Below, in pieces: positions 4,270 through 49,085 of a DNA stretch of 64,000 bases. The position numbers were made by a program, and so were the translations under genes. The stretch is from Planctomycetota bacterium (lineage in GTDB: Bacteria > Planctomycetota > Phycisphaerae > Phycisphaerales > Phycisphaeraceae), in the NCBI GenBank assembly GCA_039025855.1, contig JBCCNL010000001.1, positions 106,988 to 170,987 on the forward strand. The letters run 5' to 3'. The first letter of the stretch is position 1, and each line of letters starts with the position of its first letter. The notes under the pieces are model-generated. The model was not told the DNA's origin and did no database searches. It was given only the letters and a program-made list of their open reading frames with translations.

Positions 4270-4400
4270 AGGGCTCACACATCCCATCGTCACCAGACTC
4301 CGCTCTGTTCCGTCAGGCCGCCGACCGTCTCACTCTATCAAGTCTCACCCCAGCCCCCCTACCCGTCCCCGTGATCGCCCCACCCCTTAGCCCCTAAAGC

Positions 4401-8439: not shown

Positions 8440-8514
8440 CCTTCTCCCGACGCCTGTTCAGGATGTCACATCAACCCCTCCCAAGCAACCCGTAATCCCA
8501 AACAAACCGTCACG

Positions 8515-14197: not shown

Positions 14198-15544
14198 TCA
14201 GTTGTGAAGGGGGTAGCGGTGACCGATCGCGTGCAGGTAGGCACAGGCCGCGTCGCGTGTGGTCTGCTGGTTCTCGAGGATGCTCCAGCCGTCTCGGCCC
14301 GGGATCATGTTGCCCTTGGACTTCTGCCGCGCATGGAAGAAGTCGAGCAGCTTGAGCCGCCAACGCATGCTCAGCGGGATGTCGTCGAAGCGTCCGGACA
14401 AGACGGCGATGAGTGCCCGGTGGACGCCGAGCGGCCCTTTGCCCTGAAGCAGCAGTTCGCGGAACGGGTGGCTGTAGAAGAGATTGATGTAGTGCAACAT
14501 CAATCCTCGGCGTGCGGCGCCGCGCTCGAGGAAGTGCTGCTTTGCCCGTTGCGGGTTGTCGTTGCTCAGGACCTGGTCGGCGGCGTGGGCGGCGTCCAGC
14601 GCGCTGGCGATCGCGAGGCGCACGCCGGAGGAAAACACGGGGTCCAGGAAGGCCTCGGCATCGCCGACCATCAGGTAGCCGTCGCCGGCACCGGGTGAAC
14701 AGGTGTAGGAGAAGTCGGCCACCGACCACGTGGTCTCGGGGAAGGTCGCGTTGGCGGTGCGCTTGGCGAGCAGCGGGGTGCGTGCGATGGACCAGGCGAG
14801 TTCTTCGCCGGGCTTGACCCCCTGCTTGCGCATCGCGGTGCTGGCGGACTTATCGACGACCAGGCCGATGGAGGTGCGCTGGTCGTCGATGGGGATCACC
14901 CAGTACCAGGCCTCGTTGGCCATGACGACCGAGATGAAGCCCTCGGCGTCGCCGGCGAGGCGCTCGACGCCGGTGAAGTGCCCGACGAACGCGACCTTGC
15001 GGTGGTTCTCGAGAACCTTCTTCGTGCCGAGGTGTTTGCCGAGCACGGTGGCCTGTCCGGAACAGTCGATCACCATCCGGGCGTGCATCGGGCCAGCGGA
15101 CGTCTGCAGAGCGCAGTCGCCCTGGCTGAGCCTCTCGATGGACTGAACGCCGACACCTTGATGCAGCGTCACGCCCGGTTGCTCGGCCGCGAAGTCGAGC
15201 ACGGCCTTGTCGAAGACGCAGCGCTCGATGTTGAACGTCTCGGTCTGCCCCCACCGCTTGCCCGATTCGAAGTAGAGCATCGCGCCCTGGTCTTCTTGAC
15301 CGGCCGAGACGATCTCGGCGCCGCGCTTCGTGATCCTGGGCAGCTTCTGCAGCGTCTCGGTCAGGCCCAGGCTGTCGAGCATCGGGTTAACGCTCGGCAG
15401 CAAAGACTCGCCGACGTGGAAACGAGGGAAGTGCTCCCGCTCGATGATGTCGACGGTGTAGCCGCGGCGCGACAACGCGATCGCGGTGCACGCCCCCGCG
15501 GGCCCACCTCCAATGATCAATGCGTCGGCTGGCTTCTGTTTCAC
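14198..15544 (-). CDS. Flavin-dependent halogenase (tryptophan-halogenase-like FAD enzyme)
   Basis: FAD-binding ALIIGGGPAGACTA, plus the halogenase signature WxWxIP present as EAWYWVIPIDD. The GTG start overlaps the stop of the upstream gene (GTGA). Confidence 0.7.
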   Translation of the reverse strand: MKQKPADALIIGGGPAGACTAIALSRRGYTVDIIEREHFPRFHVGESLLPSVNPMLDSLGLTETLQKLPRITKRGAEIVSAGQEDQGAMLYFESGKRWGQTETFNIERCVFDKAVLDFAAEQPGVTLHQGVGVQSIERLSQGDCALQTSAGPMHARMVIDCSGQATVLGKHLGTKKVLENHRKVAFVGHFTGVERLAGDAEGFISVVMANEAWYWVIPIDDQRTSIGLVVDKSASTAMRKQGVKPGEELAWSIARTPLLAKRTANATFPETTWSVADFSYTCSPGAGDGYLMVGDAEAFLDPVFSSGVRLAIASALDAAHAADQVLSNDNPQRAKQHFLERGAARRGLMLHYINLFYSHPFRELLLQGKGPLGVHRALIAVLSGRFDDIPLSMRWRLKLLDFFHARQKSKGNMIPGRDGWSILENQQTTRDAACAYLHAIGHRYPLHN

Positions 15545-16455
15545 GAGGCGGCCTCGATCTCAAGACAGAGGTTGTTGCGGCAGATGTCCGATCGCATCAG
15601 TTCGATCGACACCCGCGAAGGGTAGGCCGATTCAATCCCCCGGGCTAACGCGGGCAGGTCTTCGGCATCGGTCGCGTAGATCCGGAAGTGACGCAGCCGA
15701 TCGTCCGGCTCACCGATGCCGGCCATCACCGCCCGCAGGTTGGCGAGGGTTTCGTCGAACTGGGCCTGCAGCTGGTTGGGGTGTTGGCTCTCTTCACCGA
15801 CGATGCTCGCGGTGCCGGAGACAAAGAGGTGCTGCCCGAAGCGCATGGCCCGGACGAAGACGGGCGGGCTCGGCCCGAAGCGCGGCGAGTAGCGGTAGGC
15901 CGGGGTTTGACGCGGGTTCTCCAGGGCCTCGCCGGGCTGCTCGCTGGCCAGGAGGTGGACCTGCAGGTGCTCGCCGAGGTGCCCAACGGCGGTCGCGGCC
16001 GGCGTGCGATGGGGCAGTTGGTCCTCGCCGAAGCGTTGGACGAACGCGGCGGTGCGCCCGGCGTTGAAGGCCATGTAGCGATCGAACGGCTCGTGTTCGG
16101 GGGCTTGAGATTCCCAGTCCGCGAGCTGGTCGGCGGGGGCGGTGATGGGCTGGACGATGCCGGGCAGCCCGTTCCAGAGGCGGAGCAGGTGGGGGTGCCC
16201 GGTCTGGTCGAGCAGGTCGAAGAGCCGGGTGTAGAGGTCCTCGACGGTGTCTTCGAGCTGACGGGCGTCCATGGTGCTGGCGTGGGGGAGCGCGGCGTGG
16301 ACCCGGAGCATGCCGTTCTGTGCGGCGTGGTTCAGGGTGGCATCGCCCGACGGCGCAGCGGGCGGCGGGCAGAGCGCGTCGAGCCAGGACGGGGCGAGCA
16401 GCTCGTCGTCGGGCAGCTGTCGGATGCGGGGCGTGTCAGTCGTCGGTGGGTGCAT
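15541..16455 (-). CDS. FkbO/Hyg5/XanB2-type chorismatase (hydroxybenzoate synthase), RidA/YjgF-like fold
   Basis: The C-terminal half, HLFVSGTASIVGEESQHPNQLQAQFDETLANLRAVM...LCLEIEAAS, fits the SGTASI-type chorismatase/RidA pattern. The gene sits between a KS and a halogenase, as in xanthomonadin clusters. Confidence 0.6.
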   Translation of the reverse strand: MHPPTTDTPRIRQLPDDELLAPSWLDALCPPPAAPSGDATLNHAAQNGMLRVHAALPHASTMDARQLEDTVEDLYTRLFDLLDQTGHPHLLRLWNGLPGIVQPITAPADQLADWESQAPEHEPFDRYMAFNAGRTAAFVQRFGEDQLPHRTPAATAVGHLGEHLQVHLLASEQPGEALENPRQTPAYRYSPRFGPSPPVFVRAMRFGQHLFVSGTASIVGEESQHPNQLQAQFDETLANLRAVMAGIGEPDDRLRHFRIYATDAEDLPALARGIESAYPSRVSIELMRSDICRNNLCLEIEAAS

Positions 16456-18640
16456 CGGGTCTGGATACGATAATGCTGCTGCGGAGTCCGGAGGGGCAGG
16501 CGGACGCGAGATTTGTAGACGGCGGACCTAGCTGGGCCAGGGTGTGGAGCAGCGCGAGGCCGGTGCCGAGGGCGAACCAGGGCCCGTGGGGGAAGGGCTG
16601 GTGCCCGGCGGTGCGGAGCGGTTGCTCTTGCCGCAGATCGGTCGGGCAGAACGCGGGGCTCGGGCGGCCCTGCGTGAAGAGCTCGGCCAAGGCTTCGGTC
16701 GGGTCGTGGTATGAAACGAGGCTCGGGTCGCTCAGGACGGCCACAGGCTTGCTGCTCGCGTCCAAACGCTGGAGCACCAGCGCGATCGCGCCTTCGTGTG
16801 GGGCCGCATCGGGTGCGATGTGGCCAAAGTCCGCGACGATCTGCCGCACCAACGGGTGATCCTCCTCGGCGATACAGACGATCGCGGTGGTCCACCGCCC
16901 CGAAGCGATCCGGGCGGTCGCTAAGGCGAGGGCGTCGAGGCCGCTGGTGTGCGTGCCGATGATGCTCTGGCTTGGGCCGTGCAGCTTGTAGACCATCGAG
17001 AGGTGCGCCGCCGGTGCGTTGGGCACACCCTCGGCGAAGAGCAGCGGGTTGGCGGCCTGATAGCCCTCTTCGATCAGCGGCTTGTAGTAGTCGAGCGCGT
17101 AGCTCGCGGACCCGTTGGCGGAGGCGACCAGGCAGGCGGGCCGGGCTTCGGCGGGCGCATCGAGCCCGGGCAGGTCGGCCGGGTCGATCCCCGCGCGGTG
17201 CAGGGCGAGGTCGGTGGCCTTGAGGGCCAGACGGGTCAGCGGGCTGAGCCTCCGGGTCTTGGCCCGGGGCATGCCGGTGTTGAGGTCTGCCGGTGCGATG
17301 GTGCCGGTCGCCCACAGCAAGTCTTGATCCGGTACGCCTTCGCAGACGATGCCCGGCAGCACCACGCCAACGCCCGTGATCGCGACGCCTTGTTGGTCTT
17401 GGCTGCCTTGGTGATCCGAATGGTGAACGGACTGGGGATCCGAGCCGGGCGCGGACTGGATCATGCCGACGTTGGCCCCGCCGAAGCCAAGCGAGCTGGA
17501 GAGGAAGTGCGGGATCGGCGTGGCCAGCTCGGGCGGCGTCCCGGTGGCGAGTTGGACGGGCTCGCCGACCTGCTCGGGCGTGACGCTGGCGGTGGTGGGG
17601 AGTCGCCCGGCATCGAGGCAGGCACGGGCGATACCCGCTTCGAGTGCGCCGCAAGCGCCGAGGGTGTGACCGATCCGGCTCTTGAGGGCCGCGACCCGCG
17701 GGCCTTGGTCGCCGAAGACCTGGTGCAGGGCTTTGGCTTCCGCGGCGTCGTTGTCGCGGGTTCCGGTCGCGTGTGCCATCGCCAGGCCGATCGATGCTGT
17801 GTTGAGCTGAGCGTCACGCACAGCGTCGGCCATCGCGGCCGCAGCCCCCCTGCCGTCGGGGTGGGGCTGGGTGAGGTGGTGAGCGTCGGAGGACTCGCCG
17901 ATCCCGCGGATCAAGGCCTGCACGCCTTGGCCACGCTGCTCAGCATGCCCAGCGCGTTCGAGCACGAACACGGCGTAACCCTCGGAGACCTGCATGCCCT
18001 GGCGGTCGGCGGCGAACGGGCGCAGCCGGTCCATCGTGACCACGCGGAGCGAGTGGAACCCCGCGACGGCGTACTCGCTCACCGGGTCGTACCCGCCACA
18101 CAGGACGATGTCTGCGTCGCCGGACTCGAGGAGTGCGCGGGCGTGGCCGACCGACGAGAACGCCGATGCACACGCTGATGAGCAGGTCACGCGTGCTCCG
18201 CCGACGGGCAGGCCCTCGAGTGCGTGCTGCATGACGTGACCGGCCTGGAACCACGCGAAGACCGCGGTCGGCGATCCGCGCAGCCACGCCCCCGCGGCGT
18301 TCATGCCGTGGAGGCTGGTCCCGAGCACGGCACTGATCCGCTCCGGCGGACAGGGTGGGGCGTCGGCGTCGATGCCCGCCGCTTCGATCGCTTCGCGGGC
18401 CGCGATCGCCAGCCCGCGCGCGGCGCGTTCGTGGATCGGCAGGCCGGCGAGGCTGGCGCACTCGCCCCCGCGGATGCCCTCGTCGGCGACCTGCTCCGCC
18501 AGCTCCATGTCGCGGTAGGGGCCGAGCCCGACGCCGTCCCGGCACAGTGCCTCGACCTGCGCAGCGACGCCCGCGCCCAGCGGGCTGATGCAGCCGAACC
18601 CGGTGATCACGGGCGTGTTGCTTGGGTCTGCCTGACTCAT
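16436..18640 (-). CDS. Fused beta-ketoacyl synthase plus chain-length-factor-like (KS-CLF) protein
   Basis: The N-terminal half carries the KS triad context: VTCSSACASAFS (Cys), MAHATGTRDNDAAE (His), SRIGHTLGACGALE (His). The C-terminal half is KS-fold but lacks the Cys (ACLVASANGSASY). I prefer the ATG at 18640 (MSQADPSNTPVITGFGCISPLG), which overlaps the upstream stop (ATGA). Confidence 0.8.
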   Translation of the reverse strand: MSQADPSNTPVITGFGCISPLGAGVAAQVEALCRDGVGLGPYRDMELAEQVADEGIRGGECASLAGLPIHERAARGLAIAAREAIEAAGIDADAPPCPPERISAVLGTSLHGMNAAGAWLRGSPTAVFAWFQAGHVMQHALEGLPVGGARVTCSSACASAFSSVGHARALLESGDADIVLCGGYDPVSEYAVAGFHSLRVVTMDRLRPFAADRQGMQVSEGYAVFVLERAGHAEQRGQGVQALIRGIGESSDAHHLTQPHPDGRGAAAAMADAVRDAQLNTASIGLAMAHATGTRDNDAAEAKALHQVFGDQGPRVAALKSRIGHTLGACGALEAGIARACLDAGRLPTTASVTPEQVGEPVQLATGTPPELATPIPHFLSSSLGFGGANVGMIQSAPGSDPQSVHHSDHQGSQDQQGVAITGVGVVLPGIVCEGVPDQDLLWATGTIAPADLNTGMPRAKTRRLSPLTRLALKATDLALHRAGIDPADLPGLDAPAEARPACLVASANGSASYALDYYKPLIEEGYQAANPLLFAEGVPNAPAAHLSMVYKLHGPSQSIIGTHTSGLDALALATARIASGRWTTAIVCIAEEDHPLVRQIVADFGHIAPDAAPHEGAIALVLQRLDASSKPVAVLSDPSLVSYHDPTEALAELFTQGRPSPAFCPTDLRQEQPLRTAGHQPFPHGPWFALGTGLALLHTLAQLGPPSTNLASACPSGLRSSIIVSRPDAPTDD

Positions 18641-19539
18641 GAAGGCGCGGGGTCTTTCAGTTCGTGCTGGTTCTCGATAAAGGCCCGTTGGAGCGTGTGC
18701 CATTGGCCGGGTTGACGGGCGATGATCCCGGAGAAGAACGCGGCGAGCCGGTGTCGGATCGAGTCCTTGTCGGGGTGTGGGTCGGCCTCGCTTGGACCGA
18801 TGGGCCGGTCGATATGGAGCAGGACGCGGCCGTCGGGCTGAACGCTACAGGCAATCGGGAGGATGGGGGCACCGGTGATCTGTGCGAGCTTGGCGGGGCC
18901 GTCGGGCATCTGCATGTGGCCGTGCAGGAAGGGGGTGGGCGTACCGGGCTGGCCGGGCATGCAGCGGTCGGCCTGGATCAGGACGGCGGCGCCACGGCAC
19001 AGCGCGTCGCGGAGCTGCATCCATGTCTCCAATCCGCCCTCGACCCGCGCTTCGGTCAGACGCAGCCGCCGGTGCAGCTCGCTACGCATCCGGTCAAACC
19101 CGCTGTCCTCGTCGCTCTGGAACAGGATGTGTGTCTCCGGCACCCGCTCGGCGACGGCCACGGCACCCACCTCGAAGTTGCCCACGTGGCAGGTCGCGAT
19201 GATCAGGCCACGCTCCATCTGGAGCGCCGCCTCGAAGTGGTCTCGGCCCTCGATGTCCGCGACGCGGCCGAGCATCTGAGCGGGGTCCATGACCCGGGCC
19301 TGTGCGAGATCGCCAACGAACCGCAGAAACTCGCAGACCACGGACCGCCCGTAGCGCGCGAGTGCCGCGTCGTCGGCGTCCGGCCCGAGCACCCAGCGCC
19401 CGTTGCTCTTGCAGACACGCCTGAGGTAGCCGGAGCCGAACCAGGCGATCGCCGCTAAGGCGTCGCGGTGCCGGACCAGCCAGCCCGGCCGAAGCGCGAC
19501 GGCACTGAACAGGAGCTTGAGAGTAAGGCGGTGAAGCAT
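18637..19539 (-). CDS. LpxL/HtrB-type lysophospholipid (lipid A-type) acyltransferase
   Basis: ...GLIIATCHVGNFEVGAVAVA... (H-x-G-N-x-E motif of the LPLAT/LpxL family), ...AVLIQADR...; the size and position match ApeD-like acyltransferases. Confidence 0.7.
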   Translation of the reverse strand: MLHRLTLKLLFSAVALRPGWLVRHRDALAAIAWFGSGYLRRVCKSNGRWVLGPDADDAALARYGRSVVCEFLRFVGDLAQARVMDPAQMLGRVADIEGRDHFEAALQMERGLIIATCHVGNFEVGAVAVAERVPETHILFQSDEDSGFDRMRSELHRRLRLTEARVEGGLETWMQLRDALCRGAAVLIQADRCMPGQPGTPTPFLHGHMQMPDGPAKLAQITGAPILPIACSVQPDGRVLLHIDRPIGPSEADPHPDKDSIRHRLAAFFSGIIARQPGQWHTLQRAFIENQHELKDPAPS

Positions 19540-19554
19540 GGTGCGGTCTGTCGT

Positions 19555-20295
19555 TCAGCGGCGGTTGTCCTGCTCGGAGTTCCCCTCCGGGTACTCGACG
19601 CGTGCATCGTCCGGCACGTCCAACGCGATCTCAGTGTCCGCCACCGTCTGGTTGATACGCACCTGCGAGAACTCCATATCGGTCCGGTCACCCGCCGCAT
19701 CGGTGGACGAGGCGCTGACGATCAGTCCCAGCATCGGGTCGAATCCCAGCGTGAGCGACTGCATGTGTTCGCGGACCGACTCACGGGGCTCGAGCGCGAG
19801 CGTGACCCGGCCGCTGCGTGGATCGGTCGACAGATCGGCAAGCCGGAAGTCCCTGGCGAGCGCTTCGGGGTCGGGTCGGCCCGTGGTCATCGCCATGCCG
19901 TTGGGGGGGATGCGGTAGACCTCGAGCACGTTGTCATCGGGGTAGTAGATGTGCATCTGCGTGGCGTTGAAATGCATCTCGACGGGCGACGGCGTGGTGA
20001 GCGACAAGCGTGCGGCCTCGCCCTTGGCGACGAAGCGGCCTCGCGAGACGACCGGCTCATCGAGCAGCAGGCTGGTGCGCTTCTGCGTGAACACGGCGCG
20101 GACCGACTCGGGCTTCGGCGACTGATCCAGCAACTGGCCGAGCTGCTTCCAACGCTCGGCCTCGGATGTTTCGTCGGGCTGGCTGGCGGACTCGGCGACG
20201 GCCGGCGCGGGGCAAGCGAGGATGACCGCCAGCATCAGGCAGCACCGGGCGGCCAGCGAGGTGACATATGTCCAGACTGAGACGGAGCAACGCAC
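19555..20295 (-). CDS. LolA-like outer-membrane lipoprotein-carrier family protein
   Basis: Signal peptide ...CCLMLAVILACPAPAVAES. The body, VRAVFTQKRTSLLLDEPVVSRGRFVAKGEAARLSLTTPSPVEMHFNATQMHIYYPDDNVLEVY, fits the LolA pattern, and the context is an aryl-polyene cluster. Confidence 0.6.
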   Translation of the reverse strand: MRCSVSVWTYVTSLAARCCLMLAVILACPAPAVAESASQPDETSEAERWKQLGQLLDQSPKPESVRAVFTQKRTSLLLDEPVVSRGRFVAKGEAARLSLTTPSPVEMHFNATQMHIYYPDDNVLEVYRIPPNGMAMTTGRPDPEALARDFRLADLSTDPRSGRVTLALEPRESVREHMQSLTLGFDPMLGLIVSASSTDAAGDRTDMEFSQVRINQTVADTEIALDVPDDARVEYPEGNSEQDNRR

Positions 20296-20302
20296 GGCCG
20301 AT

Positions 20303-20764
20303 TCAACCCTTGAGCACGTTGGTGAGGAGGATCTCGCCGCGGGCGATCAGCCGACCATCGACGTGTGCGGCGACGAGAAACGTGGTGATGCCGGCCGTGT
20401 CGCCTTGGGTCTCGGAGGACAAGTCGATCCGGGCGGGCGGGACGACCGGTCGCTTGAGGACGACGTCCGCCTTGACGATCCCGGCCTGCACCGGCTCGGC
20501 ACCCGGCTCGGCGTCAAAGTGGATCAGCCCGCTGAACTGCGCGAGTGCTTCGATCAGCAGCACGCCGGGCACGATCGGTCGGCCCGGGAAGTGGTCCTTA
20601 AAGAACGGCTCGTCGCCGCGGACCCGCCAGTGGCCCTTACCGTGGGTCGTCCCGTCCGGCGTCGATCCGCACTCATCGACGGCGGTTACAAAGCGGAAGC
20701 CGTCGCCGTGCGGCAGCGACGTCGGCGTGGGCAAATCCTGAGTGTTTCGCGTCTCTCCGGGCAC
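20303..20764 (-). CDS. FabZ/FabA-like (hotdog) 3-hydroxyacyl-ACP dehydratase
   Basis: Motif [23 protein letters not shown]. Confidence 0.8.
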
Positions 20765-20876
20765 GATTTAGACTATAGCAGCAGGCGTTGTTAGACTGCC
20801 TCTGATGTCGTTTGGCCGCGGCGGTACCACCGCCGGCCGCTTTCACCTCGCACAACTTTCGCCTTGGGGATTACCT

Positions 20877-21296
20877 ATGACTCGCGTCCTTCCGCTGCTT
20901 CTGGTTGCCACGCTCTGCCTGTCTGTCGCCGCCTGCCAATCCAGCGGTGTCAAGGGCACGCCGATGATTGAGCCCGCACCCGTGGACATCACGGGCCTGG
21001 ATAAAGACAAGGTCTCGAAGGCGGTCTTCGCCGCCGTCGAATCACGCGGCTTTATCTTCGAAAGCGGCACATCGACTTCCATGCAGGTCGGCTGGGCCCG
21101 CGGCAAGTACACCGCAACCTGGGAGATCGATTTTGCGGGCGACGAGGTCATCCTCAGCTACGTCGATAGCCAGGAGCTGTCGTACAACGAAGACGCCGAG
21201 GGCAACCCGTTCATCCACCGGACCTACAACACCTGGACCACCAACCTGCGGAGCGACATCGCCCGTGAGGTCGGCAAGCTGCGGTTCAGCAGCTGA
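20877..21296 (+). CDS. Small lipoprotein of unknown function
   Basis: MTRVLPLLLVATLCLSVAAC has a lipobox with Cys. The track ORF starts at 20805, but the ATG at 20877 gives a proper signal peptide. It is the only plus-strand gene inside the pigment cluster and looks slightly less GC-rich by eye. Confidence 0.6.
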   Translation: MTRVLPLLLVATLCLSVAACQSSGVKGTPMIEPAPVDITGLDKDKVSKAVFAAVESRGFIFESGTSTSMQVGWARGKYTATWEIDFAGDEVILSYVDSQELSYNEDAEGNPFIHRTYNTWTTNLRSDIAREVGKLRFSS

Positions 21297-21326
21297 GGCA
21301 ATCACCGAGCCGTCCGGGGTTGACGG

Positions 21327-21351
21327 GCCCAAACCGTCTTAGGGTTTGGGC
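21327..21351. terminator. Perfect 9-bp stem hairpin (GCCCAAACC-gtcttag-GGTTTGGGC) between convergent genes
   Basis: Read directly. The loop contains the methyltransferase stop codon and the right arm encodes its last residues (KPKP). It lies 31 nt after the lipoprotein stop. No U-tract. Confidence 0.4.
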
Positions 21352-22136
21352 TTGGTGCCCAGGTACTCCTTGAAGACGCTGAGCGTACTGTTGCAGCGCA
21401 CGTCCTCGAAGCCGGCCTCACGCATCGCGTTCATGATGGCCTCGGAGTCGATGCAGGTCTGGATCGTGTCCCAGTAGTAGCGCCAGAGCGTGCCGACCTC
21501 TTTGCGCTCGCCGGTGAGCCGGGCCAGGAGCGGAACGACCCGCCGGATGTAGAGCCCACCGAGCCAGCCGGTCAGTCGGCCGCGCGGCTTGGTGATCTCC
21601 ATCAGGCAGACCTGGCCGCCGGGCTTGAGCACCCGCAGGTATTCGCCGAACGCCTGCTCCAGGCTGCTGAGGTGCCGCAGCGCGTACCCCATCGTGACCA
21701 GGTCGAACCGGTCGTCGTCTAGCGGGATCGACTCGGCGTAGCCCTCGATGACCTCGACGTCGAGCTTCTGCTTCGCCTCGGCGAGCATGCCCGGTGAGGG
21801 GTCGAGCCCGACAAGGACGCCGCCGGGCAGGTTCAGCTTCTGGATCTCGACCGCCACCAGCCCCGTCCCCATCGCGACATCCAGCACGTCGTCGCCGGGC
21901 TTGAGCCCCATGCGTCTGAGCACCCGCCTGCGGTACCACGGCCCGACGCCCAGCCCTGTCAACGCCTCGGCCTTGTCGTAGCCCGCCGCCCCGGCGTCGA
22001 ACATCTCACGCGTCCGGTCACGGCGCTGCGCTTCACTCTCGTAGTAGCGCTCCAGGCCCGCACCCTCCACCAGCGGGGTGTCGGCACCACCGATGGTGGA
22101 CTCGCTCGGCAGGCTCGGTGCGGTGCTCGGCATCAC
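21339..22136 (-). CDS. Class I SAM-dependent methyltransferase (UbiE/MenG-like)
   Basis: Motif I DVLDVAMGTGLVA, then LVTMGYALRHL, VLKPGG. The start (GTG 22136 or ATG 22133) overlaps the GT2 stop. Confidence 0.85.
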   Translation of the reverse strand: MMPSTAPSLPSESTIGGADTPLVEGAGLERYYESEAQRRDRTREMFDAGAAGYDKAEALTGLGVGPWYRRRVLRRMGLKPGDDVLDVAMGTGLVAVEIQKLNLPGGVLVGLDPSPGMLAEAKQKLDVEVIEGYAESIPLDDDRFDLVTMGYALRHLSSLEQAFGEYLRVLKPGGQVCLMEITKPRGRLTGWLGGLYIRRVVPLLARLTGERKEVGTLWRYYWDTIQTCIDSEAIMNAMREAGFEDVRCNSTLSVFKEYLGTKPKP

Positions 22137-23458: not shown

Positions 23459-23490
23459 GGGGTGGAGTTGAGGGTGGGGCGGGGTTGTAG

Positions 23491-23751
23491 TTAGGCCATC
23501 CGGGTCTGGAGATAGGTCGCCAGCGTTCGGAGGTCACGCATCGTCTCAGGCCCCATCTCGTCGGGACTGAGCTTGATGCCGTACTTCTTTTCAATGCTGG
23601 TGATAAGCATGAGGTAGTCCAGCGAGTCGAACCCGATGTCCTCGGAAGCGAACGAAGTGGTTGGGGTCAGCTCGACGTCGCCGAGCTTCAGGTCCCGCCG
23701 GATGATCTCGATCAGAGCCCCCTCCAGTTCCTCAACATTCACCACTTTCAT
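23491..23751 (-). CDS. Acyl carrier protein
   Basis: 86 aa, with the phosphopantetheine site in DIGFDSLDYLMLITSIE. Confidence 0.8.
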   Translation of the reverse strand: MKVVNVEELEGALIEIIRRDLKLGDVELTPTTSFASEDIGFDSLDYLMLITSIEKKYGIKLSPDEMGPETMRDLRTLATYLQTRMA

Positions 23752-23778
23752 GGCCTCCGACTATACCAGTGCAAGGGC

Positions 23779-24465
23779 CTACTCGCGATAGGCGTGGCGG
23801 CGTCGCGTCGCGCACTGATCCTCGGGAATCCCCATCTCCTCGAGCAGGTCCCGGTGCAGGCCGCGGATGCGGTCGGCCAGCTCGGCTTCGTACCGCCGGA
23901 GGCCCTCGGGGCCGGACCGTTTGTCCGGCGGCGGCATCGGTTCGCCAAAAGCAATCCCGTAGCGGGCCTGGTTCGGAAACCATGCGCTCCAACGTGCAAA
24001 GGTCAGCGAGTCCTCGATCGCACAGGGGATCATCGGGGCCTTGCCCAGCCGGGCGATCCCGCCGATCCCTGGCACGAGGCTCCCGCCGTGCAGCACCGAC
24101 TTGTCCTGAAAACTCAGCGCCCCCTCAGGGAAGACACCCACGCTCCGGCCCTGCTTCAGCCGCGCCACAATGTCACGCACCGTCTTCGGGTCCGGCTTCG
24201 ACTGATCCAACGGCATCGCATTACACATCCGATACAGCCAGCCCGCACGGGAGTTGATGATCTCCGTCGTCGAAACGAAGTCGATCTTGACCGGCATGTA
24301 GTACATCAGGATCGCGATGTCGTAAGGGCTCGTGTGGTTCGAGGCCACCATCAGCGGTCCCTCGAGACCCTTGAGGTGATCGAGACCCAACGCCGTCGGC
24401 TTGTGGCAGATCACGAAACCGGGCCAACAGATTCCGTAAACGACGTTGTAAAAAAGATCGGACAT
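23779..24465 (-). CDS. PlsC-type 1-acyl-sn-glycerol-3-phosphate acyltransferase family protein
   Basis: HX4D motif as NHTSPYDIAIL, plus VGVFPEGAL. Confidence 0.8.
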   Translation of the reverse strand: MSDLFYNVVYGICWPGFVICHKPTALGLDHLKGLEGPLMVASNHTSPYDIAILMYYMPVKIDFVSTTEIINSRAGWLYRMCNAMPLDQSKPDPKTVRDIVARLKQGRSVGVFPEGALSFQDKSVLHGGSLVPGIGGIARLGKAPMIPCAIEDSLTFARWSAWFPNQARYGIAFGEPMPPPDKRSGPEGLRRYEAELADRIRGLHRDLLEEMGIPEDQCATRRRHAYRE

Positions 24466-24469
24466 CGGT

Positions 24470-25237
24470 CTAGGTCTGAGCCGTGGCGTGGGGTGGGTGG
24501 AGAGCGCTACCCGCTGCGGCGTGGGGATCGACTTTAACGAGACTGGGGTCGTCCGGCTCGCCGGGGCTCAGGTCGTGGCGGTCGTCCACGCCGTCGAACT
24601 GGAGCAGCCGCTTGTACATCGCCGGGTAGGACGCGCGGAGCCGATCGCCGAGGGCTCGGCGTTGTTCACGACGCCCGCGGTGGTCGTTGTGCAGCGGTTC
24701 GGGGTGGATCGGCTCACCGACCGCGACATGGACCGCCGCGTGCCGGAACGGCCGCCAGGTCGTAGCCCGGTTCATGGCGTGTGTCCCGATGAGCGCGATC
24801 GGGATGATCGGCACCTGGCCGTGCATCGCGAGGAAGCACGCCCCCTGCTTGATCGGGCCGCCGCGCATGGCCGAGTACTGGCGACGCGACACCCCGGCCT
24901 CGGGGAACACGCCAACGCGTTCACCCTCCGCCAACAGCTCAAGCCCGCGGCGCAGCGCCGGCCGTGGGTAGCCCTGCCGATGGACCGGGAACGCCCGAAC
25001 CGCACGAAGCGCCCAGGCCAGCAGGCGGGACTTGTAGAACTCAGTCCGCGCCATCCACCGCACCTCGTCGCGTAGCAGGATGCCGAGGACCAGCGGGTCC
25101 AGGTGCGAGATGTGCGTCGGCGCGATGATGCAAGGCCCGTCGACCCCGAGGTGCTCCGGGTTCAGGATGGTCGTGGGCATCGTGCACCACGTGATCGGCT
25201 TCACCAGCCAGCGTGCGGTTTGATAAGCCAGGGTCAT
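24470..25237 (-). CDS. Second PlsC-type acyltransferase
   Basis: The track ORF 24470..25681 is over-extended. The ATG at 25237 (MTLAYQTARWLVKP) overlaps the MMPL stop (ATGA). HX4D motif as THISHLDPLVL, plus VGVFPEAGV. Confidence 0.75.
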   Translation of the reverse strand: MTLAYQTARWLVKPITWCTMPTTILNPEHLGVDGPCIIAPTHISHLDPLVLGILLRDEVRWMARTEFYKSRLLAWALRAVRAFPVHRQGYPRPALRRGLELLAEGERVGVFPEAGVSRRQYSAMRGGPIKQGACFLAMHGQVPIIPIALIGTHAMNRATTWRPFRHAAVHVAVGEPIHPEPLHNDHRGRREQRRALGDRLRASYPAMYKRLLQFDGVDDRHDLSPGEPDDPSLVKVDPHAAAGSALHPPHATAQT

Positions 25238-27702
25238 CGGTCTTGCCCTTCGACCAGTAGAGAGCCCGCGTTGCGTCGCCCGACCGAGAGCCCGAGCAGC
25301 CAGGTCGTCACGAGGACCGCGACGAGCCCGGCGGTGACCATCCACCCCAACTCGCGCACCGCCGGGATCGACGTCCACATGAGCGAGCCAAACCCGATAA
25401 AGGTCGTCACGAACGTCAGGTGGATGCCCGTCAATCGGCTTCGGATTGTAACCACACACCCCCGCGCGACGGCATCGCCCAGCAGCAGGCTCGCATCGAC
25501 CCCGATCCCCAGCAGCAGCGGCACCGCCGCCAGCGTGACCACGTTCCATTGACCCGACCCCAGCCGCTGCACGAGCAGCGCCGCGAGCAGACCCATCGCC
25601 GGCGGCAGCACCGTCACCACCACACGCCCAACCCGCCGGAGGCTCACCAGCAGCACCAGCCCGATCGGGATCACCGACCACGCGAACGCCCGCAGCAGGT
25701 CACGACGCAGCTGCTTCCGCATCTGCTCGCTGATCAGGTCGAGCCCGGTGGCTTGGAACCCGTCAAGCCCCGACAGCGCTTCACGCAGCCCGTCGAGGTC
25801 TTCACGCCGGTCCGACTCCCGCGCCCACGAACGCGTCGGTACCAGCAGCGCCACCGTGGCCGGCGCGTCGGCATCGAACGGGCTCGGGAAGAACAGCCCC
25901 CCCGCACCGGACCGGGCCAACGCCTCAAGCCCCGGCGACGGCGTCGCCAAAAACCCCGCCAAAAAATCCCCGGCCGGCTCGAACACCGCAGGCCGAAACC
26001 CGGCCTGTCCAGCCGCCTCCAGCAACAAACGCTTGACCTCGACCGGATCGATGTCAGCGAGCAACGCGCTGTTGCGCACGTCGGCCCCAGCCTCGGGCAG
26101 CAGGCTCAGCGCGCTGGCCTTCTCAAACGGGGTATCGAGCCCATGCAGCCGATCCAACCGCTCGTACAGCTGCCCCGCGTCTTCAGCCTCGATCAGCACC
26201 AGCACAGAACCCTGGCGTTGGCCGAACGACCGCTCCATCCGCTGCTGAGCCTCGAGCGTCGGGTTGGGCTGCGGGTGCAGGTTGTACAAGGTCAGTGCGC
26301 TGTCATCCCCGCGGATCAGCACGGCACTCAAGATCATCACCAGGACAAAGGCGATGCCCGCGACGCGTAGCCACGTCGAGTGCGCGAGCGCCCAAACGAG
26401 CAGACGATGAGGCGTTGCGCTGGTCCGGGGAGTCACCGTCTTGCACAGCCCAGTCAACGTGGGCAGAAGGGTCAGCGAGGCGATCGCCGCGCAGGCCAGC
26501 GCCAGACCGCCGAGCACCGCGAGCTGCTTCAGTGCGGTCGGCTCGGTGGCAAGCAGCGCCAGGAAGCCGCACGTCGTGGTGATGCACGCCGTCGCGATCG
26601 GCCGGGCCAGCGTCCGCGCCGCCGACCACGCCCGCTGCACCGGGGTCGTGCCGTCGGGCGCGGCACGCCGCACCTCCGTGAGCAGATGGATCCCGTAGTC
26701 CACGCCCAGCCCCGCGAGCATGCCGCCAGACAATGCCGCGAGCGGCGACAGCCTCATCCCGGTCAGGCCAAAAAGCCCGAACGCGGTGAACATCGCCACT
26801 AGGGTCGTCGTCAACAGCAACACGATCGGCGTCAGCCGCCGCCACACGATCAGGAACACCCCGACCAGCCCGACCGACGCGAACAGCACCGACCCCTTGA
26901 TGTCGTCCCGCACCCGGCCCGCCGCCTCGGCCGCCATCATGTGCCCCCCCACCGCCTCGAACCGCAGCGTCGGATAGTCCCGGCCCAGCGGTGCCAACAC
27001 CCCGTTCAAGGCTTCGGACAATTCAACCGAACGCGCGTGGTCACTCGGAGCAAACGGCACCGCGAGCGTGAGGGACCACGCCGTGCCGGACGCGCTAAAC
27101 CGCCCAGCCAGCGGATTGGTCGGTGCGCTCCATTCCGTCTCATCAATACCCGGCGCGGACGGCGTGTCTGCACCCAGCCGTTCCGCAAAGTCGCGCGGCA
27201 CGAGCTCGCGGAGCCCCAGCGGGTCGCGCAGCATCTGCCGTGTGACCTCCGCCGGCTGCGGCGTAGCGAGGCGTTGCTTGTGGCGCTGCAGCCTCGCCCG
27301 GATCGACTCGGGCTCCAGCCGGGCGCGCAGTTCCACCACCGCCTCTTCGCTGAGCCAGGCCCGGCCACGCGGGACCTGCTGAATCACCCAATCACGGGCC
27401 TGCAACTCGGCCACGGCCTGCGCCTCGACACCAAGCTCCTCAAGCCCCTGCGAATCACGGATCGCATCACGCAGCTGATCGATCGCTTCGATCGGGAGCG
27501 GCGTGGCATCATCACGCGAGCTGACCAAGACGTGCGCCGTACCACCGATGCGAAACCGCTCGTTGATCTGCACCATCGCATCGACCGCGGGGAAGCCCTG
27601 GCCAAGCGTGTTCTCGACCGACGGGTCGAGCTCGAGCCGCGTCCAGCCGATGCACGCCAGCACGAACAGCGCCGGCCACAGGTAGAGGGAAAGGCGTCGC
27701 AT
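25234..27702 (-). CDS. MMPL/RND-superfamily exporter
   Basis: 822 aa with two blocks of about 6 TM helices, each preceded by a large soluble loop. The position equals that of the ApeM-like exporter in aryl-polyene clusters. Confidence 0.75.
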   Translation of the reverse strand: MRRLSLYLWPALFVLACIGWTRLELDPSVENTLGQGFPAVDAMVQINERFRIGGTAHVLVSSRDDATPLPIEAIDQLRDAIRDSQGLEELGVEAQAVAELQARDWVIQQVPRGRAWLSEEAVVELRARLEPESIRARLQRHKQRLATPQPAEVTRQMLRDPLGLRELVPRDFAERLGADTPSAPGIDETEWSAPTNPLAGRFSASGTAWSLTLAVPFAPSDHARSVELSEALNGVLAPLGRDYPTLRFEAVGGHMMAAEAAGRVRDDIKGSVLFASVGLVGVFLIVWRRLTPIVLLLTTTLVAMFTAFGLFGLTGMRLSPLAALSGGMLAGLGVDYGIHLLTEVRRAAPDGTTPVQRAWSAARTLARPIATACITTTCGFLALLATEPTALKQLAVLGGLALACAAIASLTLLPTLTGLCKTVTPRTSATPHRLLVWALAHSTWLRVAGIAFVLVMILSAVLIRGDDSALTLYNLHPQPNPTLEAQQRMERSFGQRQGSVLVLIEAEDAGQLYERLDRLHGLDTPFEKASALSLLPEAGADVRNSALLADIDPVEVKRLLLEAAGQAGFRPAVFEPAGDFLAGFLATPSPGLEALARSGAGGLFFPSPFDADAPATVALLVPTRSWARESDRREDLDGLREALSGLDGFQATGLDLISEQMRKQLRRDLLRAFAWSVIPIGLVLLVSLRRVGRVVVTVLPPAMGLLAALLVQRLGSGQWNVVTLAAVPLLLGIGVDASLLLGDAVARGCVVTIRSRLTGIHLTFVTTFIGFGSLMWTSIPAVRELGWMVTAGLVAVLVTTWLLGLSVGRRNAGSLLVEGQDR

Positions 27703-27705
27703 GGG

Positions 27706-28497
27706 TCAATCGGGGCCGAACGCGAGGCTGAGCCGAGTCGCAAGACCGAGCCGGCGGCTTCCGGGCACCGGCTTGAAGTGGGCCGGCGTCAGTGATGGAT
27801 TGGGCTGGAACGCGTCAACAAGGAACTCCACAACCGGCTCCCCGCCCAGGCTCAGCCGCAGCGCGTCCACATGCGGCGCCGGCTCACCACTTCGATAACG
27901 CAGCTCGGTCGTCACCGGGCCATCGGGGCTCTGAACCAAGACCCGGTGAGTCGTCCGAGTGCTGCGGTGGACCCAGACCTCAGCGGGATGCTCGCCGATG
28001 AGGTCAGTCGTGTTGAACACTAGGTGATCGTCGGCCGACCGATCGAAGACCAGCGACTCGCTGCGGATCAATGCGAGCGGCAGTTCGATCGGTGCAGCGT
28101 CCGTCGCATCACCACCCGCGTCGTCGGCACGGCTCCGGGTCCAGACCCACGCCTCCCCGTCGGCATACACCAGGTCAATCGCGTTGCGACCGAGCTTGCT
28201 CGCGCGCAGCCGCAGGCGGGGTGATTCAGTCTCGAGCGCATCGATCAGCATGATCCCGTCCAGCCTTGTGGTTCGGCCTTCCCGCGACAGCAACACCGTG
28301 CCGACCGCCCGCCACGACGTGAGCCCCGCATCACGCTCCTGCATCGCCGCAAGCACCGCCTCGGGCGCCGCGTCTTCGTACACCGGCAGATCAACACCGG
28401 GGTGGTCGTACACACCGCCGCGCTGGAGACACCCCTGCCCGAGCACCGCGAACGCGGGCATCAACCACGCCCACGCCGAAAACACCCGGCCCGTCAC
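27706..28497 (-). CDS. Putative lipoprotein (DUF3261/LolB-like, ApeN-position)
   Basis: The track ORF extends to 28602, overlapping the ligase gene. The GTG at 28497 overlaps the ligase stop (GTGA) and gives VTGRVFSAWAWLMPAFAVLGQGC, a signal peptide with Cys. There is no diagnostic motif, so the assignment is by position and size only. Confidence 0.45.
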   Translation of the reverse strand: MTGRVFSAWAWLMPAFAVLGQGCLQRGGVYDHPGVDLPVYEDAAPEAVLAAMQERDAGLTSWRAVGTVLLSREGRTTRLDGIMLIDALETESPRLRLRASKLGRNAIDLVYADGEAWVWTRSRADDAGGDATDAAPIELPLALIRSESLVFDRSADDHLVFNTTDLIGEHPAEVWVHRSTRTTHRVLVQSPDGPVTTELRYRSGEPAPHVDALRLSLGGEPVVEFLVDAFQPNPSLTPAHFKPVPGSRRLGLATRLSLAFGPD

Positions 28498-29960
28498 GAG
28501 GGCACCGCCGACAACGCCTCGTCTGGCTGGGCGTGCCGGATCACTTTGCCCAACGCCGTGCGCGGCAGGTGTTCGCAGGCGAAGGTGCGCGGCACCTTCC
28601 ACGGCGCAAGGTGGTGCCGGCAGTGGCGTCGCAGTTCGGCCGCCGTCGGCGGGGCGTCGTCGTCGGTCGGCTCGATCACCGCGTTGAGCCGACTGATCGT
28701 GTGGTTCAGCCGCTCCTCACCGACGAGCGCTTCGCGGACGCCGGGGTGCAGCCGAAGGATGGCCTCGACCTCCATCGGGTTGACCTTGTTCGCACCGACA
28801 TCGATCAGCAGCTTCCGCCGTGCGACAAACCGGAAGTGCCCGTCGCGCCCGCGCACCCCCAGGTCGCCCGTCAGGAAACATCGCCGCCCCGCGATCTCAG
28901 TAAATGGAGGCTCGTGCTCGGCCTCGCCCAACGCGTCGATGTAGCCCGTCATCAGCGACGGGGCATCGACCGCGATCTCGCCCGTCATGCCGTCCGAGAC
29001 CGGCACCCGGCTGTCCGGATCCACGATGTGCATCGCCACCCCCGGCATCGGCCGCCCCAACCACCCGGCATCGTGCCCCGGCTCATGTGGGTCCGCCAAA
29101 CAGACCGAGCCCATCTCCGTCGCCCCGTAGTAGTTCGCCGCTTCAAGCCCGAGCTTGTCCCGGCAGGCATACCACAGCGGCTCGGGCAGCGTCGCACCCG
29201 CACAAAGCAGGCGACGCAGCGTCGGGAACGCCGGCTCACCCGGTTCGCCGCGGTGCATCTGCACGAGCATGTCGACCATGGCCGGGACCGCCGGCAGGAT
29301 CGTCGCACCGGTCTCATGGATCCGCTGCGCCAACCGGTCCGGCGTGAACGCGTTCTCCAGCTCGACACGCGACCCCGCCAACAGCGGCGCAAGCAGCCCC
29401 GCCTCCAGCCCATACGCATGGGTCAACGGCACCGCCGCAAACACGGTGTCGCCAGCCAGGTACCCCACCGACGTGCAGACCTGACACGCCACCGCGTCCA
29501 CCGCCGCCGCCTCCCGCCGCACCACCTTCGAACCGCCAGTCGTGCCCGATGACGGCAGCGCCAGCCAGCCGCGTAGTTCGACCGGTCCATCCGTCCGCTG
29601 CGTGTCCAACGAGGCCCCCTCCGCCACCGACTCCTCCACACGCACCGTCACCCCAACACCCGCCTGCTGCGCCACGCGCCGACGCTCCGCGTCCGGCAAG
29701 CGATCCGACATCGGCAACACCCCATACCCCAGATGCCACAACGCAAACAGGTGCACCACCATCCCCGGCGTCGAGCCGCCCACCAGCCCGACGGGCCGCG
29801 CCGCGTCCGGCCCGGGCAGCTCCGACGCCAACCGCTCCGCGCAGCCCAGCACCAGGCCCGGCAGCTCCCCGTAGCTCACCTCCACCTCACCCAGCCGCAG
29901 CAGAACCCCGGACGGCGACCGCTGCGCGTGCTGTTGAATCGCCTGACTGATCCCTTGCAT
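28494..29960 (-). CDS. AMP-dependent synthetase/ligase (aryl/acyl adenylating enzyme)
   Basis: Motifs LPSSGTTGGSKVV, NYYGATEMG, FLTGDLG, KLLIDVGANKVNPMEVE, PRTALGKVIR. I prefer the ATG at 29960 (MQGISQAIQQ). Confidence 0.85.
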   Translation of the reverse strand: MQGISQAIQQHAQRSPSGVLLRLGEVEVSYGELPGLVLGCAERLASELPGPDAARPVGLVGGSTPGMVVHLFALWHLGYGVLPMSDRLPDAERRRVAQQAGVGVTVRVEESVAEGASLDTQRTDGPVELRGWLALPSSGTTGGSKVVRREAAAVDAVACQVCTSVGYLAGDTVFAAVPLTHAYGLEAGLLAPLLAGSRVELENAFTPDRLAQRIHETGATILPAVPAMVDMLVQMHRGEPGEPAFPTLRRLLCAGATLPEPLWYACRDKLGLEAANYYGATEMGSVCLADPHEPGHDAGWLGRPMPGVAMHIVDPDSRVPVSDGMTGEIAVDAPSLMTGYIDALGEAEHEPPFTEIAGRRCFLTGDLGVRGRDGHFRFVARRKLLIDVGANKVNPMEVEAILRLHPGVREALVGEERLNHTISRLNAVIEPTDDDAPPTAAELRRHCRHHLAPWKVPRTFACEHLPRTALGKVIRHAQPDEALSAVPS

Positions 29961-30266
29961 AGCTCTACTGTTGAAGCGAACCGGAGGCCGCCCCCAGAAT
30001 ATGGCAGAGCAGCGTTTTCCGCCAAATCGCCATGGCCCACCCAGTACAGCACGCAAACGCCCCGCAACCCCCAGCAGGCCCCGCAAAGCCCCAGAAACGC
30101 CTGAATGACCCCTGTTCGTGTCAGACGTGCAACAGAGGGGTCTGCTAGATTGATCCGCGGCAGAGGGGGGGCCTCCCCCCAGCCGATTGACGGATGTTCA
30201 ACCCGTTCCGCGGGTTCTCAGGTCGATCACCGCGTCCCTGCCGCGCCCGCTCCGGAGAGGTGTCCC

Positions 30267-30917: not shown

Positions 30918-30941
30918 ACCCCCGCTCCGGAGCACACTGCC

Positions 30942-33059: not shown

Positions 33060-33114
33060 CCCGGCCGTTCTTCACGCATCCGCTGAGCTGCACCCGCCGT
33101 GCCCAGAGTAATCG

Positions 33115-47031: not shown

Positions 47032-47057
47032 TGCAGAACCTCAATCGTCAATCGGCG

Positions 47058-49073: not shown

Positions 49074-49085
49074 CGCCGATCCTTT

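Follow-up and report, generated by a model that had tools for sequence, protein, structure and literature searches.

A 64-kb stretch of Planctomycetota DNA with ~67% G+C (hereafter the window, i.e., the whole stretch that was analyzed), located on a 238-kb contig of a metagenome-assembled genome (MAG), contains a compact cluster of 15 genes that probably builds, lipid-anchors and exports a xanthomonadin-like aryl-polyene (APE) lipid or pigment. The gene inventory, gene order and conservation of this cluster fit a cluster for an APE lipid of the xanthomonadin/arcuflavin type, and we infer from them both the polyene nature of the product and its halogenation. A preliminary description of the same DNA had proposed a cluster of this kind in a host of the PVC group; both proposals are supported by the present analysis, the host being a member of Planctomycetota.

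Gene content and layout of the cluster

Fourteen of the 15 genes are closely packed on the minus strand and form two operons, with a divergent plus-strand apeA-like gene between them (Table 1). The limits of the cluster are exact, corresponding to the stop codon of the halogenase gene on one side and the ATG of the ligase gene on the other. Overlaps of 4 nt between start and stop codons are observed at the halogenase/chorismatase junction and at the junction of the gene for the fused ketosynthase–chain-length factor (KS-CLF) with the LpxL-type acyltransferase gene, and the stop codon of the MMPL gene and the start codon of the second PlsC-type gene are 1 nt apart, which is consistent with co-translation. 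The G+C content at third codon positions (0.80–0.91 in the minus-strand open reading frames, ORFs, of the cluster) is comparable to that of the other window genes, and the NCBI protein numbering (e.g., MEM6550595.1 for the KS-CLF and MEM6550606.1 for the lipoprotein next to the exporter) agrees with the 15-gene model. Pfam domains are detected above curated cut-offs in 13 of the 15 genes. The NCBIfam models point to the same functional classes, with each score below the respective equivalog cut-off; the cluster proteins are thus distantly related members of the families concerned. Each cluster enzyme checked has its catalytic motifs intact, and the remaining window genes have unrelated functions.

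The list of parts given in the preliminary description has largely been confirmed. The AMP ligase, the acyl carrier protein (ACP), the FabZ-like dehydratase, the methyltransferase, the GT2 glycosyltransferase with a membrane domain, the two PlsC-type and one LpxL-type acyltransferases, the MMPL and LolA-like proteins, and the FkbO/XanB2-type chorismatase and flavin-dependent halogenase (the latter two also with conserved motifs) all score above Pfam cut-offs, and the putative lipoprotein carries an invariant lipobox Cys. Two corrections are required. The placement of all parts on one strand holds for the listed parts, all of which are on the minus strand, but the plus-strand ApeA-like gene had escaped notice, and the KS-CLF, while indeed present, is one fused polypeptide and not two proteins.

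Table 1. Genes of the cluster, the principal evidence for each assignment and, where determined, their occurrence among the 84 compared Phycisphaerae loci, many of which are on incomplete contigs.
Gene product	Position in window	Strand	Principal evidence	Loci with the gene
Flavin-dependent halogenase, 448 aa	14198..15544	-	Pfam Trp_halogenase 79.5 bits (cut-off 21)	62/84
FkbO/Hyg5/XanB2-family chorismatase (hydroxybenzoate synthase), 304 aa	15541..16455	-	Pfam FkbO_Hyg5-like_N (PF21168) 66.1 bits (cut-off 27)	62/84
Fused KS-CLF, 734 aa from Met22	16436..18640 (755-aa ORF to 18703)	-	ketoacyl-synt 111.4 bits and Ketoacyl-synt_C 84.6 bits, then a second, degenerate KS N-domain	84/84
LpxL/HtrB-family (lipid A-type) acyltransferase, 300 aa	18637..19539	-	Pfam Lip_A_acyltrans 67.0 bits	80/84
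LolA-like periplasmic lipid carrier, N-terminal signal segment	19555..20295	-	Pfam LolA 34.2 bits (cut-off 23.6)	67/84
FabZ-like 3-hydroxyacyl-ACP dehydratase, 153 aa	20303..20764	-	Pfam FabA/FabZ 54.1 bits	69/84
ApeA-like lipoprotein, ~139 aa from Met25	20877..21296 (ORF from 20805)	+	Homology to E. coli ApeA	
S-adenosylmethionine-dependent methyltransferase, UbiE/COQ5 family	21339..22136	-	Pfam Ubie_methyltran 110.8 bits	
GT2 glycosyltransferase with C-terminal membrane domain, 441 aa	22133..23458	-	Pfam Glycos_transf_2 76.2 bits; 5 hydrophobic segments, residues 251-396	
Acyl carrier protein, 86 aa	23491..23751	-	Pfam PP-binding 42.8 bits	
PlsC/LPLAT-family acyltransferase 1, 228 aa	23779..24465	-	Pfam Acyltransferase 58.4 bits	
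PlsC/LPLAT-family acyltransferase 2, 256 aa from Met148 of a longer ORF	24470..25240	-	Pfam Acyltransferase 74.9 bits	
MMPL/RND (HAE3, HpnN-like) lipid exporter, 822 aa	25234..27702	-	Pfam MMPL 58.7 bits	47/84
Conserved lipoprotein next to the exporter, 251 aa (NCBI AAF750_00515)	27706..28461	-	Lipobox Cys; no Pfam or NCBIfam match	
Aryl/acyl-AMP ligase (adenylate-forming), 488 aa from Met43	28494..29960	-	AMP-binding 162.4 bits and AMP-binding_C 42.9 bits	54/84

Family relationships of the encoded proteins

The ape cluster of E. coli CFT073 and the genes of type II fatty acid synthesis (FAS II) were fetched as references. Among the genes for starter supply and tailoring, the chorismatase finds its best PDB match in Hyg5 (5ag3, E 9e-25), a 3-hydroxybenzoate synthase, and scores 140 bits against TIGR04444, below the cut-off of 325. 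It retains the Cys of 'DICRNN', the Gly of 'SGTAS' and the Glu of 'EIE', and in this enzyme family the Glu is catalytic, while the Cys and Gly mark the Hyg5 subtype (PMC7170507). An aryl-acid:ACP ligase with a dedicated ACP (as in the pairs XanA2/ArcT and XanC/ArcV) has its putative counterparts in the AMP-binding enzyme, a weak match of E. coli ApeH (E 4e-4), and in the ACP of the cluster. The latter displays the DSL phosphopantetheine attachment site and shows no preference between the ApeE-type model NF006617 and generic ACP models, with equal scores below the cut-off for both. For the halogenase, the best NCBIfam match is CmlS and the top PDB matches are, without exception, halogenases (8zop, CmlS 3i3l, Bmp2, CndH and PltA; E 1e-38 to 1e-47); as judged by sequence comparison, its closest structural relatives act on phenolic, pyrrolic and carrier-bound substrates. 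It has in common with CmlS, Bmp2, PltA and CndH the GxGxxG site for FAD (GGGPAG, residues 12–17), the catalytic Lys (Lys73, aligned with the Lys of CmlS, Bmp2 and 8zop) and the WxWxIP motif (WYWVIP, residues 213–218), but not the C-terminal extension of the CmlS type (448 aa vs. 591 aa). An iterative search revealed no relationship between the methyltransferase and E. coli ApeB.

The chain-building core is centered on the KS-CLF, a single polypeptide of 734–755 aa (depending on the start) that is 100% identical to its NCBI entry. Across 24 homologues, the KS triad C178/H311/H346 does not vary. The C-terminal half has His (Arg in the family consensus) at the position of the active-site Cys, and its alignment to FabF is limited to the N-terminal thiolase half; being Cys-less and alignable in this part only, it fits the definition of a chain-length-factor-like partner. 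In an AlphaFold2 model of the full chain based on the family alignment (pLDDT 88.9, pTM 0.92), the two halves are predicted to pack as an intramolecular pseudo-heterodimer, and the best fold match of the model is the PfaC KS-CLF didomain 6riw (TMq 0.77 over 890 columns), the sole PDB entry that covers both halves. The dehydratase contains both catalytic residues, the His of HFP and the Glu of IEALAQ. The ApeI-type family PF22818 gives no match for the window dehydratase even at E up to 5, and precomputed PF22818 matches exist for its orthologues in the related loci L001 and L003.

Homology to E. coli Ape proteins is most evident among the genes of lipid attachment and export. The GT2 protein is aligned by blastp with the N-terminal half of ApeJ (32% identity over 227 aa, 105 bits) and has its DxD motif in the form DAD, while the LpxL-type acyltransferase, with an HVGNFE motif, matches the C-terminal part of the same ApeJ protein (residues 353–503, E 1e-4). 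The HX4D/E motif is intact in all three acyltransferases, reading HTSPYD (HX4D) in the first PlsC-type protein and HISHLD in the second, and both PlsC-type proteins are recovered by jackhmmer searches started from E. coli ApeD; the orthologue of the second one in locus L003 has been called as 206–266 aa. Matches of the LolA-like protein to the NCBIfam models for LolA and flexirubin LolA2 are below cut-offs, and its family profile is related to E. coli ApeL with an hhalign probability of 96.8%. Likewise, the MMPL protein, which has two groups of hydrophobic segments, is below the cut-offs of the NCBIfam HAE3 and HpnN models and matches E. coli ApeM by blastp (E 2e-7 over 548 aa).

Two lipoproteins complete this set. 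ApeA is the first gene of the E. coli APE cluster, and its homologue in the window was recognized by blastp (E 1e-5) and by reciprocal jackhmmer searches, which confirmed the link; in single-pass phmmer searches of 13,659 ORFs, the L003 orthologue is reached from both ApeA (1.1e-9) and the window ORF (9.7e-27). A signal peptide with a VAAC lipobox and an IHxxYNxW motif are conserved in this protein, and its orthologue occupies the same antisense position in loci L003–L005. The lipoprotein encoded next to the exporter has an invariant Cys11, which is part of a LAGC-type lipobox in homologues. Four database homologues of this protein were found, and its family is present in ~52 related loci, adjoining the MMPL gene in those inspected. 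The idea that it is an analogue of ApeN/DUF3261 or LolB found no support (hhalign probability of 1% vs. ApeN; no Pfam or NCBIfam match). Its AlphaFold2 model (pLDDT 40) is too poor for use.

Conservation across Phycisphaerae

A scan of one genome per species yielded relatives of the KS-CLF in at least 557 species genomes. The best 80 of these are labelled as Phycisphaerae lineage or simply as Planctomycetota or uncultured, except for one MAG labelled Isosphaeraceae, and all named homologues are from Planctomycetota or Phycisphaerae. Phycisphaeraceae, Tepidisphaeraceae and Humisphaera are represented, as is the isolate Fontivita pretiosa. A broad comparison of the 84 fetched loci, those of the cultured Algisphaera agarilytica and F. 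pretiosa among them, reveals a common core of ACP, dehydratase, LolA-like protein, LpxL-type acyltransferase, KS-CLF, chorismatase, halogenase, AMP ligase, lipoprotein and MMPL genes (see Table 1). Locus L003 and the window are fully collinear, with 37–79% identity; each gene of the window cluster, the antisense apeA-like ORF among them, has its counterpart in the same order on a 2.95-Mb metagenomic contig. In the isolate Algisphaera agarilytica (L001), the order is ACP, dehydratase, LolA, LpxL, KS-CLF, chorismatase, halogenase, ligase, lipoprotein, MMPL. Since the gene set is syntenic in relatives and the genes flanking it in the window are found in none of the 84 loci, the arrangement is not due to chance, and the cluster boundaries can be set at 14198–29960. 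On the strength of these genomic comparisons, the cluster is best regarded as an old, vertically kept trait of the class Phycisphaerae; a recent horizontal acquisition was rejected based on a G+C content like that of the surroundings and on the class-wide conservation.

The preliminary description pointed to such a cluster as deserving attention in this genomic background. It is not an oddity there, being shared across Phycisphaerae and previously picked up in this class by genome mining. Indeed, antiSMASH 'arylpolyene' clusters have been reported in the genome descriptions of Phycisphaera mikurensis and Terricella alpina. One T. alpina cluster, detected by antiSMASH 7, was reported to be homologous to a region of Algisphaera agarilytica that may be the one in locus L001 (PMC13514998), whereas antiSMASH 5.1.2 called none of this type in a comparison genome, apparently that of A. 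agarilytica (PMC8882080). The A. agarilytica genome does carry the KS-CLF cluster, and detection of the Phycisphaerae variant seems to depend on the antiSMASH version. As the cluster type is already recognized by genome-mining software, our findings refine known biology and do not introduce a new kind of system.

Some variation in gene content is observed between loci. In six of them (L006, L014, L034, L041, L042, and L076), ACP, dehydratase, LolA, LpxL and KS-CLF genes are present with no chorismatase or halogenase within 10 kb downstream, and the starter module may be separable or sited elsewhere in some lineages. Genes absent from the window are added in other loci, namely a polysaccharide deacetylase gene (28 loci; compare arcN of Azoarcus) and a gene for a 491-aa lipoprotein-like protein (16 loci); in A. 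agarilytica, the added genes are at 19731–22075 of L001. FabG and ApeQ probes detect genes resembling short-chain dehydrogenases/reductases (SDR) within 10 kb in 3 of the 84 related loci, none of them conserved, and one of them, in L014 only, is FabI-like. One Tepidisphaeraceae MAG (L050, 5033–5767) has a FabG/ApeQ-like SDR gene beside both PlsC genes, an arrangement unique among the 84 loci. A flexirubin or dialkylresorcinol hybrid was also considered and rejected, no FabH/DarB-like gene being present in the window or in the loci.

Genes on both sides of the cluster were surveyed as well. The plus-strand gene at 9855–13886 is convergent with the halogenase end of the cluster, next to which it is not conserved; its 1343-aa product combines cadherin/Big_9, Calx-beta, PA14 and glucose/sorbosone dehydrogenase domains. 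Farther out, at 2590–9702 (minus strand), genes for beta-helix/NosD-like, ATP-grasp and weakly AMP-binding-like proteins and a GT4 glycosyltransferase follow in a row, and this set may serve surface-polymer modification. At the opposite end, three plus-strand ORFs of 270, 705, and 1848 aa (30105–38661) diverge from the ligase gene across a 144-bp spacer and have an unusually low G+C content at second codon positions (0.35–0.42); the first two of them have no Pfam match and no homologue in the 84 related loci. At 42716–49952 (minus strand), a short SecA-like ATPase (721 aa) adjoins a 745-aa protein with weak PqqD and Peptidase_M50 matches and two HlyD-family proteins (671 and 288 aa), a set with the appearance of a module dedicated to the export of peptides or proteins.

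Proposed pathway, alternatives and relation to known systems

The enzyme families and catalytic residues allow us to propose a pathway, each chemical step of which is deduced from them. The Hyg5/XanB2-type chorismatase would convert chorismate to 3-hydroxybenzoate (possibly also 4-hydroxybenzoate), which the AMP ligase would load onto the single ACP of the cluster. The fused KS-CLF, with its Cys-His-His KS half and Cys-less partner, would elongate this aryl starter iteratively with malonyl units; for reduction of the beta-keto groups, the pathway would draw on a reductase gene outside the cluster, with the housekeeping FabG as the simplest candidate, and the FabZ-like dehydratase would dehydrate each product to give a conjugated polyene. 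Ring decoration may be carried out by the flavin halogenase, of a type acting on carrier-bound or small phenolic/pyrrolic substrates, and by the UbiE-family methyltransferase. The acyl chain would then be linked to an anchor, a glyco- or phospholipid, by the GT2 membrane protein together with the LpxL-type and two PlsC-type acyltransferases. Transport of the lipid would fall to the MMPL pump, the LolA-like carrier and the two lipoproteins (the ApeA-like one and that encoded next to the exporter), which would deliver it to the outer membrane, where the pigment may protect against photo-oxidative stress, as such pigments do. The functions in attachment and export are assigned after studies in E. 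coli and Xenorhabdus that describe what ApeD/J and ApeL/M/N/A do and how the APE lipid is built (PMC8253772; bioRxiv 10.1101/2020.12.19.423268).

Several observations weigh against this pathway. The preliminary description had named classification of the KS and accessory genes with APE/xanthomonadin families by hidden Markov models as a check. Several accessory proteins are homologous to E. coli APE proteins; the core enzymes remain below APE-specific thresholds (232.9 bits for the window KS against the ApeO family model NF006618, with a cut-off of 407 and 556 bits for ApeO itself). By blastp, the window KS is ranked closest to ApeO (142 bits), followed by FabF (118 bits) and ApeR (103 bits), whereas the KS family profile reverses this order (258.6 bits for E. 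coli FabF vs. 202.2 bits for ApeO); the two methods disagree, and the KS appears to be about equally distant from FabF and ApeO. The ApeC-type CLF family (PF13723) scores 17 bits in the CLF half, under the cut-off of 25, and hhalign comparison of its family with ApeC gives a probability of 0.1% (vs. 97.6% for FabF). The family profile of the dehydratase is also closer, by hhalign probability, to FabZ (99.7%) than to ApeI (85.6%) or ApeP (5.8%).

Missing functions point in the same direction. A FabG probe finds no SDR in the window, and no ketoreductase is conserved across the 84 related loci. By comparison, Xanthomonas cannot do without its dedicated ketoreductase, XanH/FabG3, and the core ape genes are taken to include apeQ (bioRxiv 10.1101/2020.12.19.423268). 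A thioesterase, a second KS, a second ACP and a second dehydratase are also lacking in the window; these and the ketoreductase had been reported as unseen in the preliminary description, in agreement with our FabG, ApeQ, ApeK and ApeP probes. Iterative jackhmmer searches with E. coli queries gave no window match for ApeQ (ketoreductase), ApeK (thioesterase), ApeP, ApeG, ApeN or ApeB, and FabH and FabD probes gave none either. To the same side belong the facts that a halogenase homologue does not guarantee halogenation (the xanthomonadin-like pigment of Lysobacter is non-brominated), that published descriptions of cultured Phycisphaerae mention pink or red color, ascribed to carotenoids, or a lack of pigment, with no yellow aryl polyene reported, and that our comparison with Xanthomonas xan and Azoarcus arc is with published gene tables rather than sequences.

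These points give some weight to an alternative product, a lipid with an aryl cap but no fully conjugated polyene chain. Here the KS-CLF would elongate the hydroxybenzoyl-ACP starter, and FAS II reductases (FabG, possibly FabI) would yield a saturated or partly unsaturated phenolic or halophenolic envelope lipid. The lack of a dedicated ketoreductase, the resemblance of the KS, CLF half and dehydratase to FAS II enzymes (at least as close as to APE enzymes), the class-wide conservation, like that of a housekeeping envelope pathway, and the description of isolates as pink or unpigmented, not yellow, are all in line with it. We nevertheless consider it unlikely: a private ACP, KS-CLF and dehydratase are the means by which APE/xanthomonadin systems shield intermediates from enoyl reductase, the whole accessory set (homologues of ApeA, ApeJ, ApeL, ApeM, and ApeD) is of the polyene-lipid cluster type, and no enoyl reductase is linked to the cluster, the sole FabI-like gene (L014) not being conserved.

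Two further alternatives are much less probable. As several genes with core or essential status in model systems are absent, the cluster could be a decaying APE/xanthomonadin remnant that has lost its ketoreductase, thioesterase and second KS and makes no product. This is very hard to reconcile with the intact ORFs and conserved catalytic residues, with the tight packing of the genes and the overlaps of their start and stop codons, and with the purifying selection implied by a reduced set kept across 84 loci and by KS-CLF relatives in at least 557 species genomes. The hydroxybenzoate module might instead serve quinone or cofactor biosynthesis, with the lipid and export genes as functionally separate neighbors, considering that XanB2 is bifunctional in Xanthomonas, where it also supplies 4-hydroxybenzoate for ubiquinone, and that the best NCBIfam models of the methyltransferase are UbiE/MenG (142.7 bits). 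That score is, however, under every UbiE/MenG cut-off, no prenyltransferase or other quinone gene is found nearby, and translational coupling ties the chorismatase and halogenase genes to the KS-CLF operon, with which they are conserved together in 62 of the 84 loci, all of which leaves a quinone role very remote. Overall, a xanthomonadin-like APE lipid remains the probable product.

APE/xanthomonadin lipids are regarded as some of the most widespread specialized lipids of bacteria and have been studied almost only in Proteobacteria and Bacteroidota. The present analysis indicates that a whole class of Planctomycetota keeps a reduced pathway with a fused KS-CLF and no dedicated reductase. If functional, it would represent the smallest gene set known for such a lipid, provide a natural single-chain KS-CLF for enzymology, and point to an undescribed, possibly halogenated, planctomycete outer-membrane lipid; cultured carriers exist in Algisphaera agarilytica and Fontivita pretiosa. 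We have found no description in the literature of the fused KS-CLF, of the systematic absence of ketoreductase, thioesterase and second KS, of the split ApeJ, or of the class-wide conservation. As a more speculative extension, which we advance only tentatively, Phycisphaerae as a class may possess a minimal APE lipid pathway (a fused KS-CLF, one ACP, one FabZ-like dehydratase and no ketoreductase of its own) dependent on cross-talk with housekeeping FAS II, with the halogenated aryl lipid being a conserved outer-membrane component and not an accessory pigment.

A side-by-side comparison with known systems places the window cluster, in gene content, closest to xan of Xanthomonas campestris and arc of Azoarcus sp. 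BH72. In both, as in the window, a chorismatase gene adjoins a flavin halogenase gene (XCC4013–4014; arcA–arcB), and an AMP ligase for aryl acids (a putative one in the window) with an ACP, a KS with an unusual CLF-like protein keeping only the N-terminal KS domain, a FabA/Z-like dehydratase, a methyltransferase, a glycosyltransferase, at least two acyltransferases, a LolA-like protein and an exporter are encoded; the glycosyltransferase, acyltransferases, LolA-like protein and exporter are conserved genes of xanthomonadin/arcuflavin clusters (PMC3949708). There are also differences. KS and CLF are separate in arc (arcK, arcJ) and fused in the window; xan and arc have a dedicated ketoreductase (XanH/FabG3, ArcH) and two dehydratases, compared with none and one, respectively; the arc genes of Azoarcus are in two unlinked loci, whereas those of the window are in one; and the window host differs in phylum, being one of the Planctomycetota. 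An attempt to obtain a proteobacterial reference by tblastn of the chorismatase against plasmids was abandoned, the hits being from Streptomyces, Pseudonocardia and a lone Caballeronia plasmid chorismatase without polyene genes around it.

The fusion itself has a parallel in the PfaC KS-CLF didomain (6riw) of a polyunsaturated fatty acid synthase, which, like the window protein, holds KS and CLF in one chain and forms an intramolecular pseudo-dimer, as is predicted for the window protein, although PfaC is part of a multidomain megasynthase, the window KS-CLF is free-standing in a type II system, and the sequence identity is 16%.

With the ape clusters of E. coli CFT073 and Xenorhabdus doucetiae (apeA–apeR), the gene-by-gene comparison envisaged in the preliminary description gave a mixed outcome. 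Homologues of ApeA, ApeJ, ApeL, ApeM, and ApeD are found in the window, and an ApeH-like ligase, an ACP, a KS with a Cys-less partner and a hotdog dehydratase are common to both, while ApeQ, ApeR, ApeK, ApeP, ApeG, and ApeN/DUF3261 remain unmatched. Moreover, the CLF half falls outside the ApeC/PF13723 type, the window methyltransferase and ApeB belong to different families, and the GT2 and LpxL-like domains, united in ApeJ, are separate proteins in the window. The ape family features tandem ACPs (ApeE, ApeF), a second KS (ApeR) and a second dehydratase (ApeP), as compared with a single KS-CLF, ACP and dehydratase in the window. Conversely, the window cluster encodes a chorismatase supplying the putative starter as well as a halogenase, neither of which occurs in E. 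coli ape. Under a strict definition by APE core genes (apeO/R, apeE/F, apeC, apeI/P, apeQ, and apeM, as used in bioRxiv 10.1101/2020.12.19.423268), the window cluster is not a canonical ape biosynthetic gene cluster; it would nevertheless function in the manner of one, and its content, by sequence-based assignment, is closest to the xanthomonadin type.

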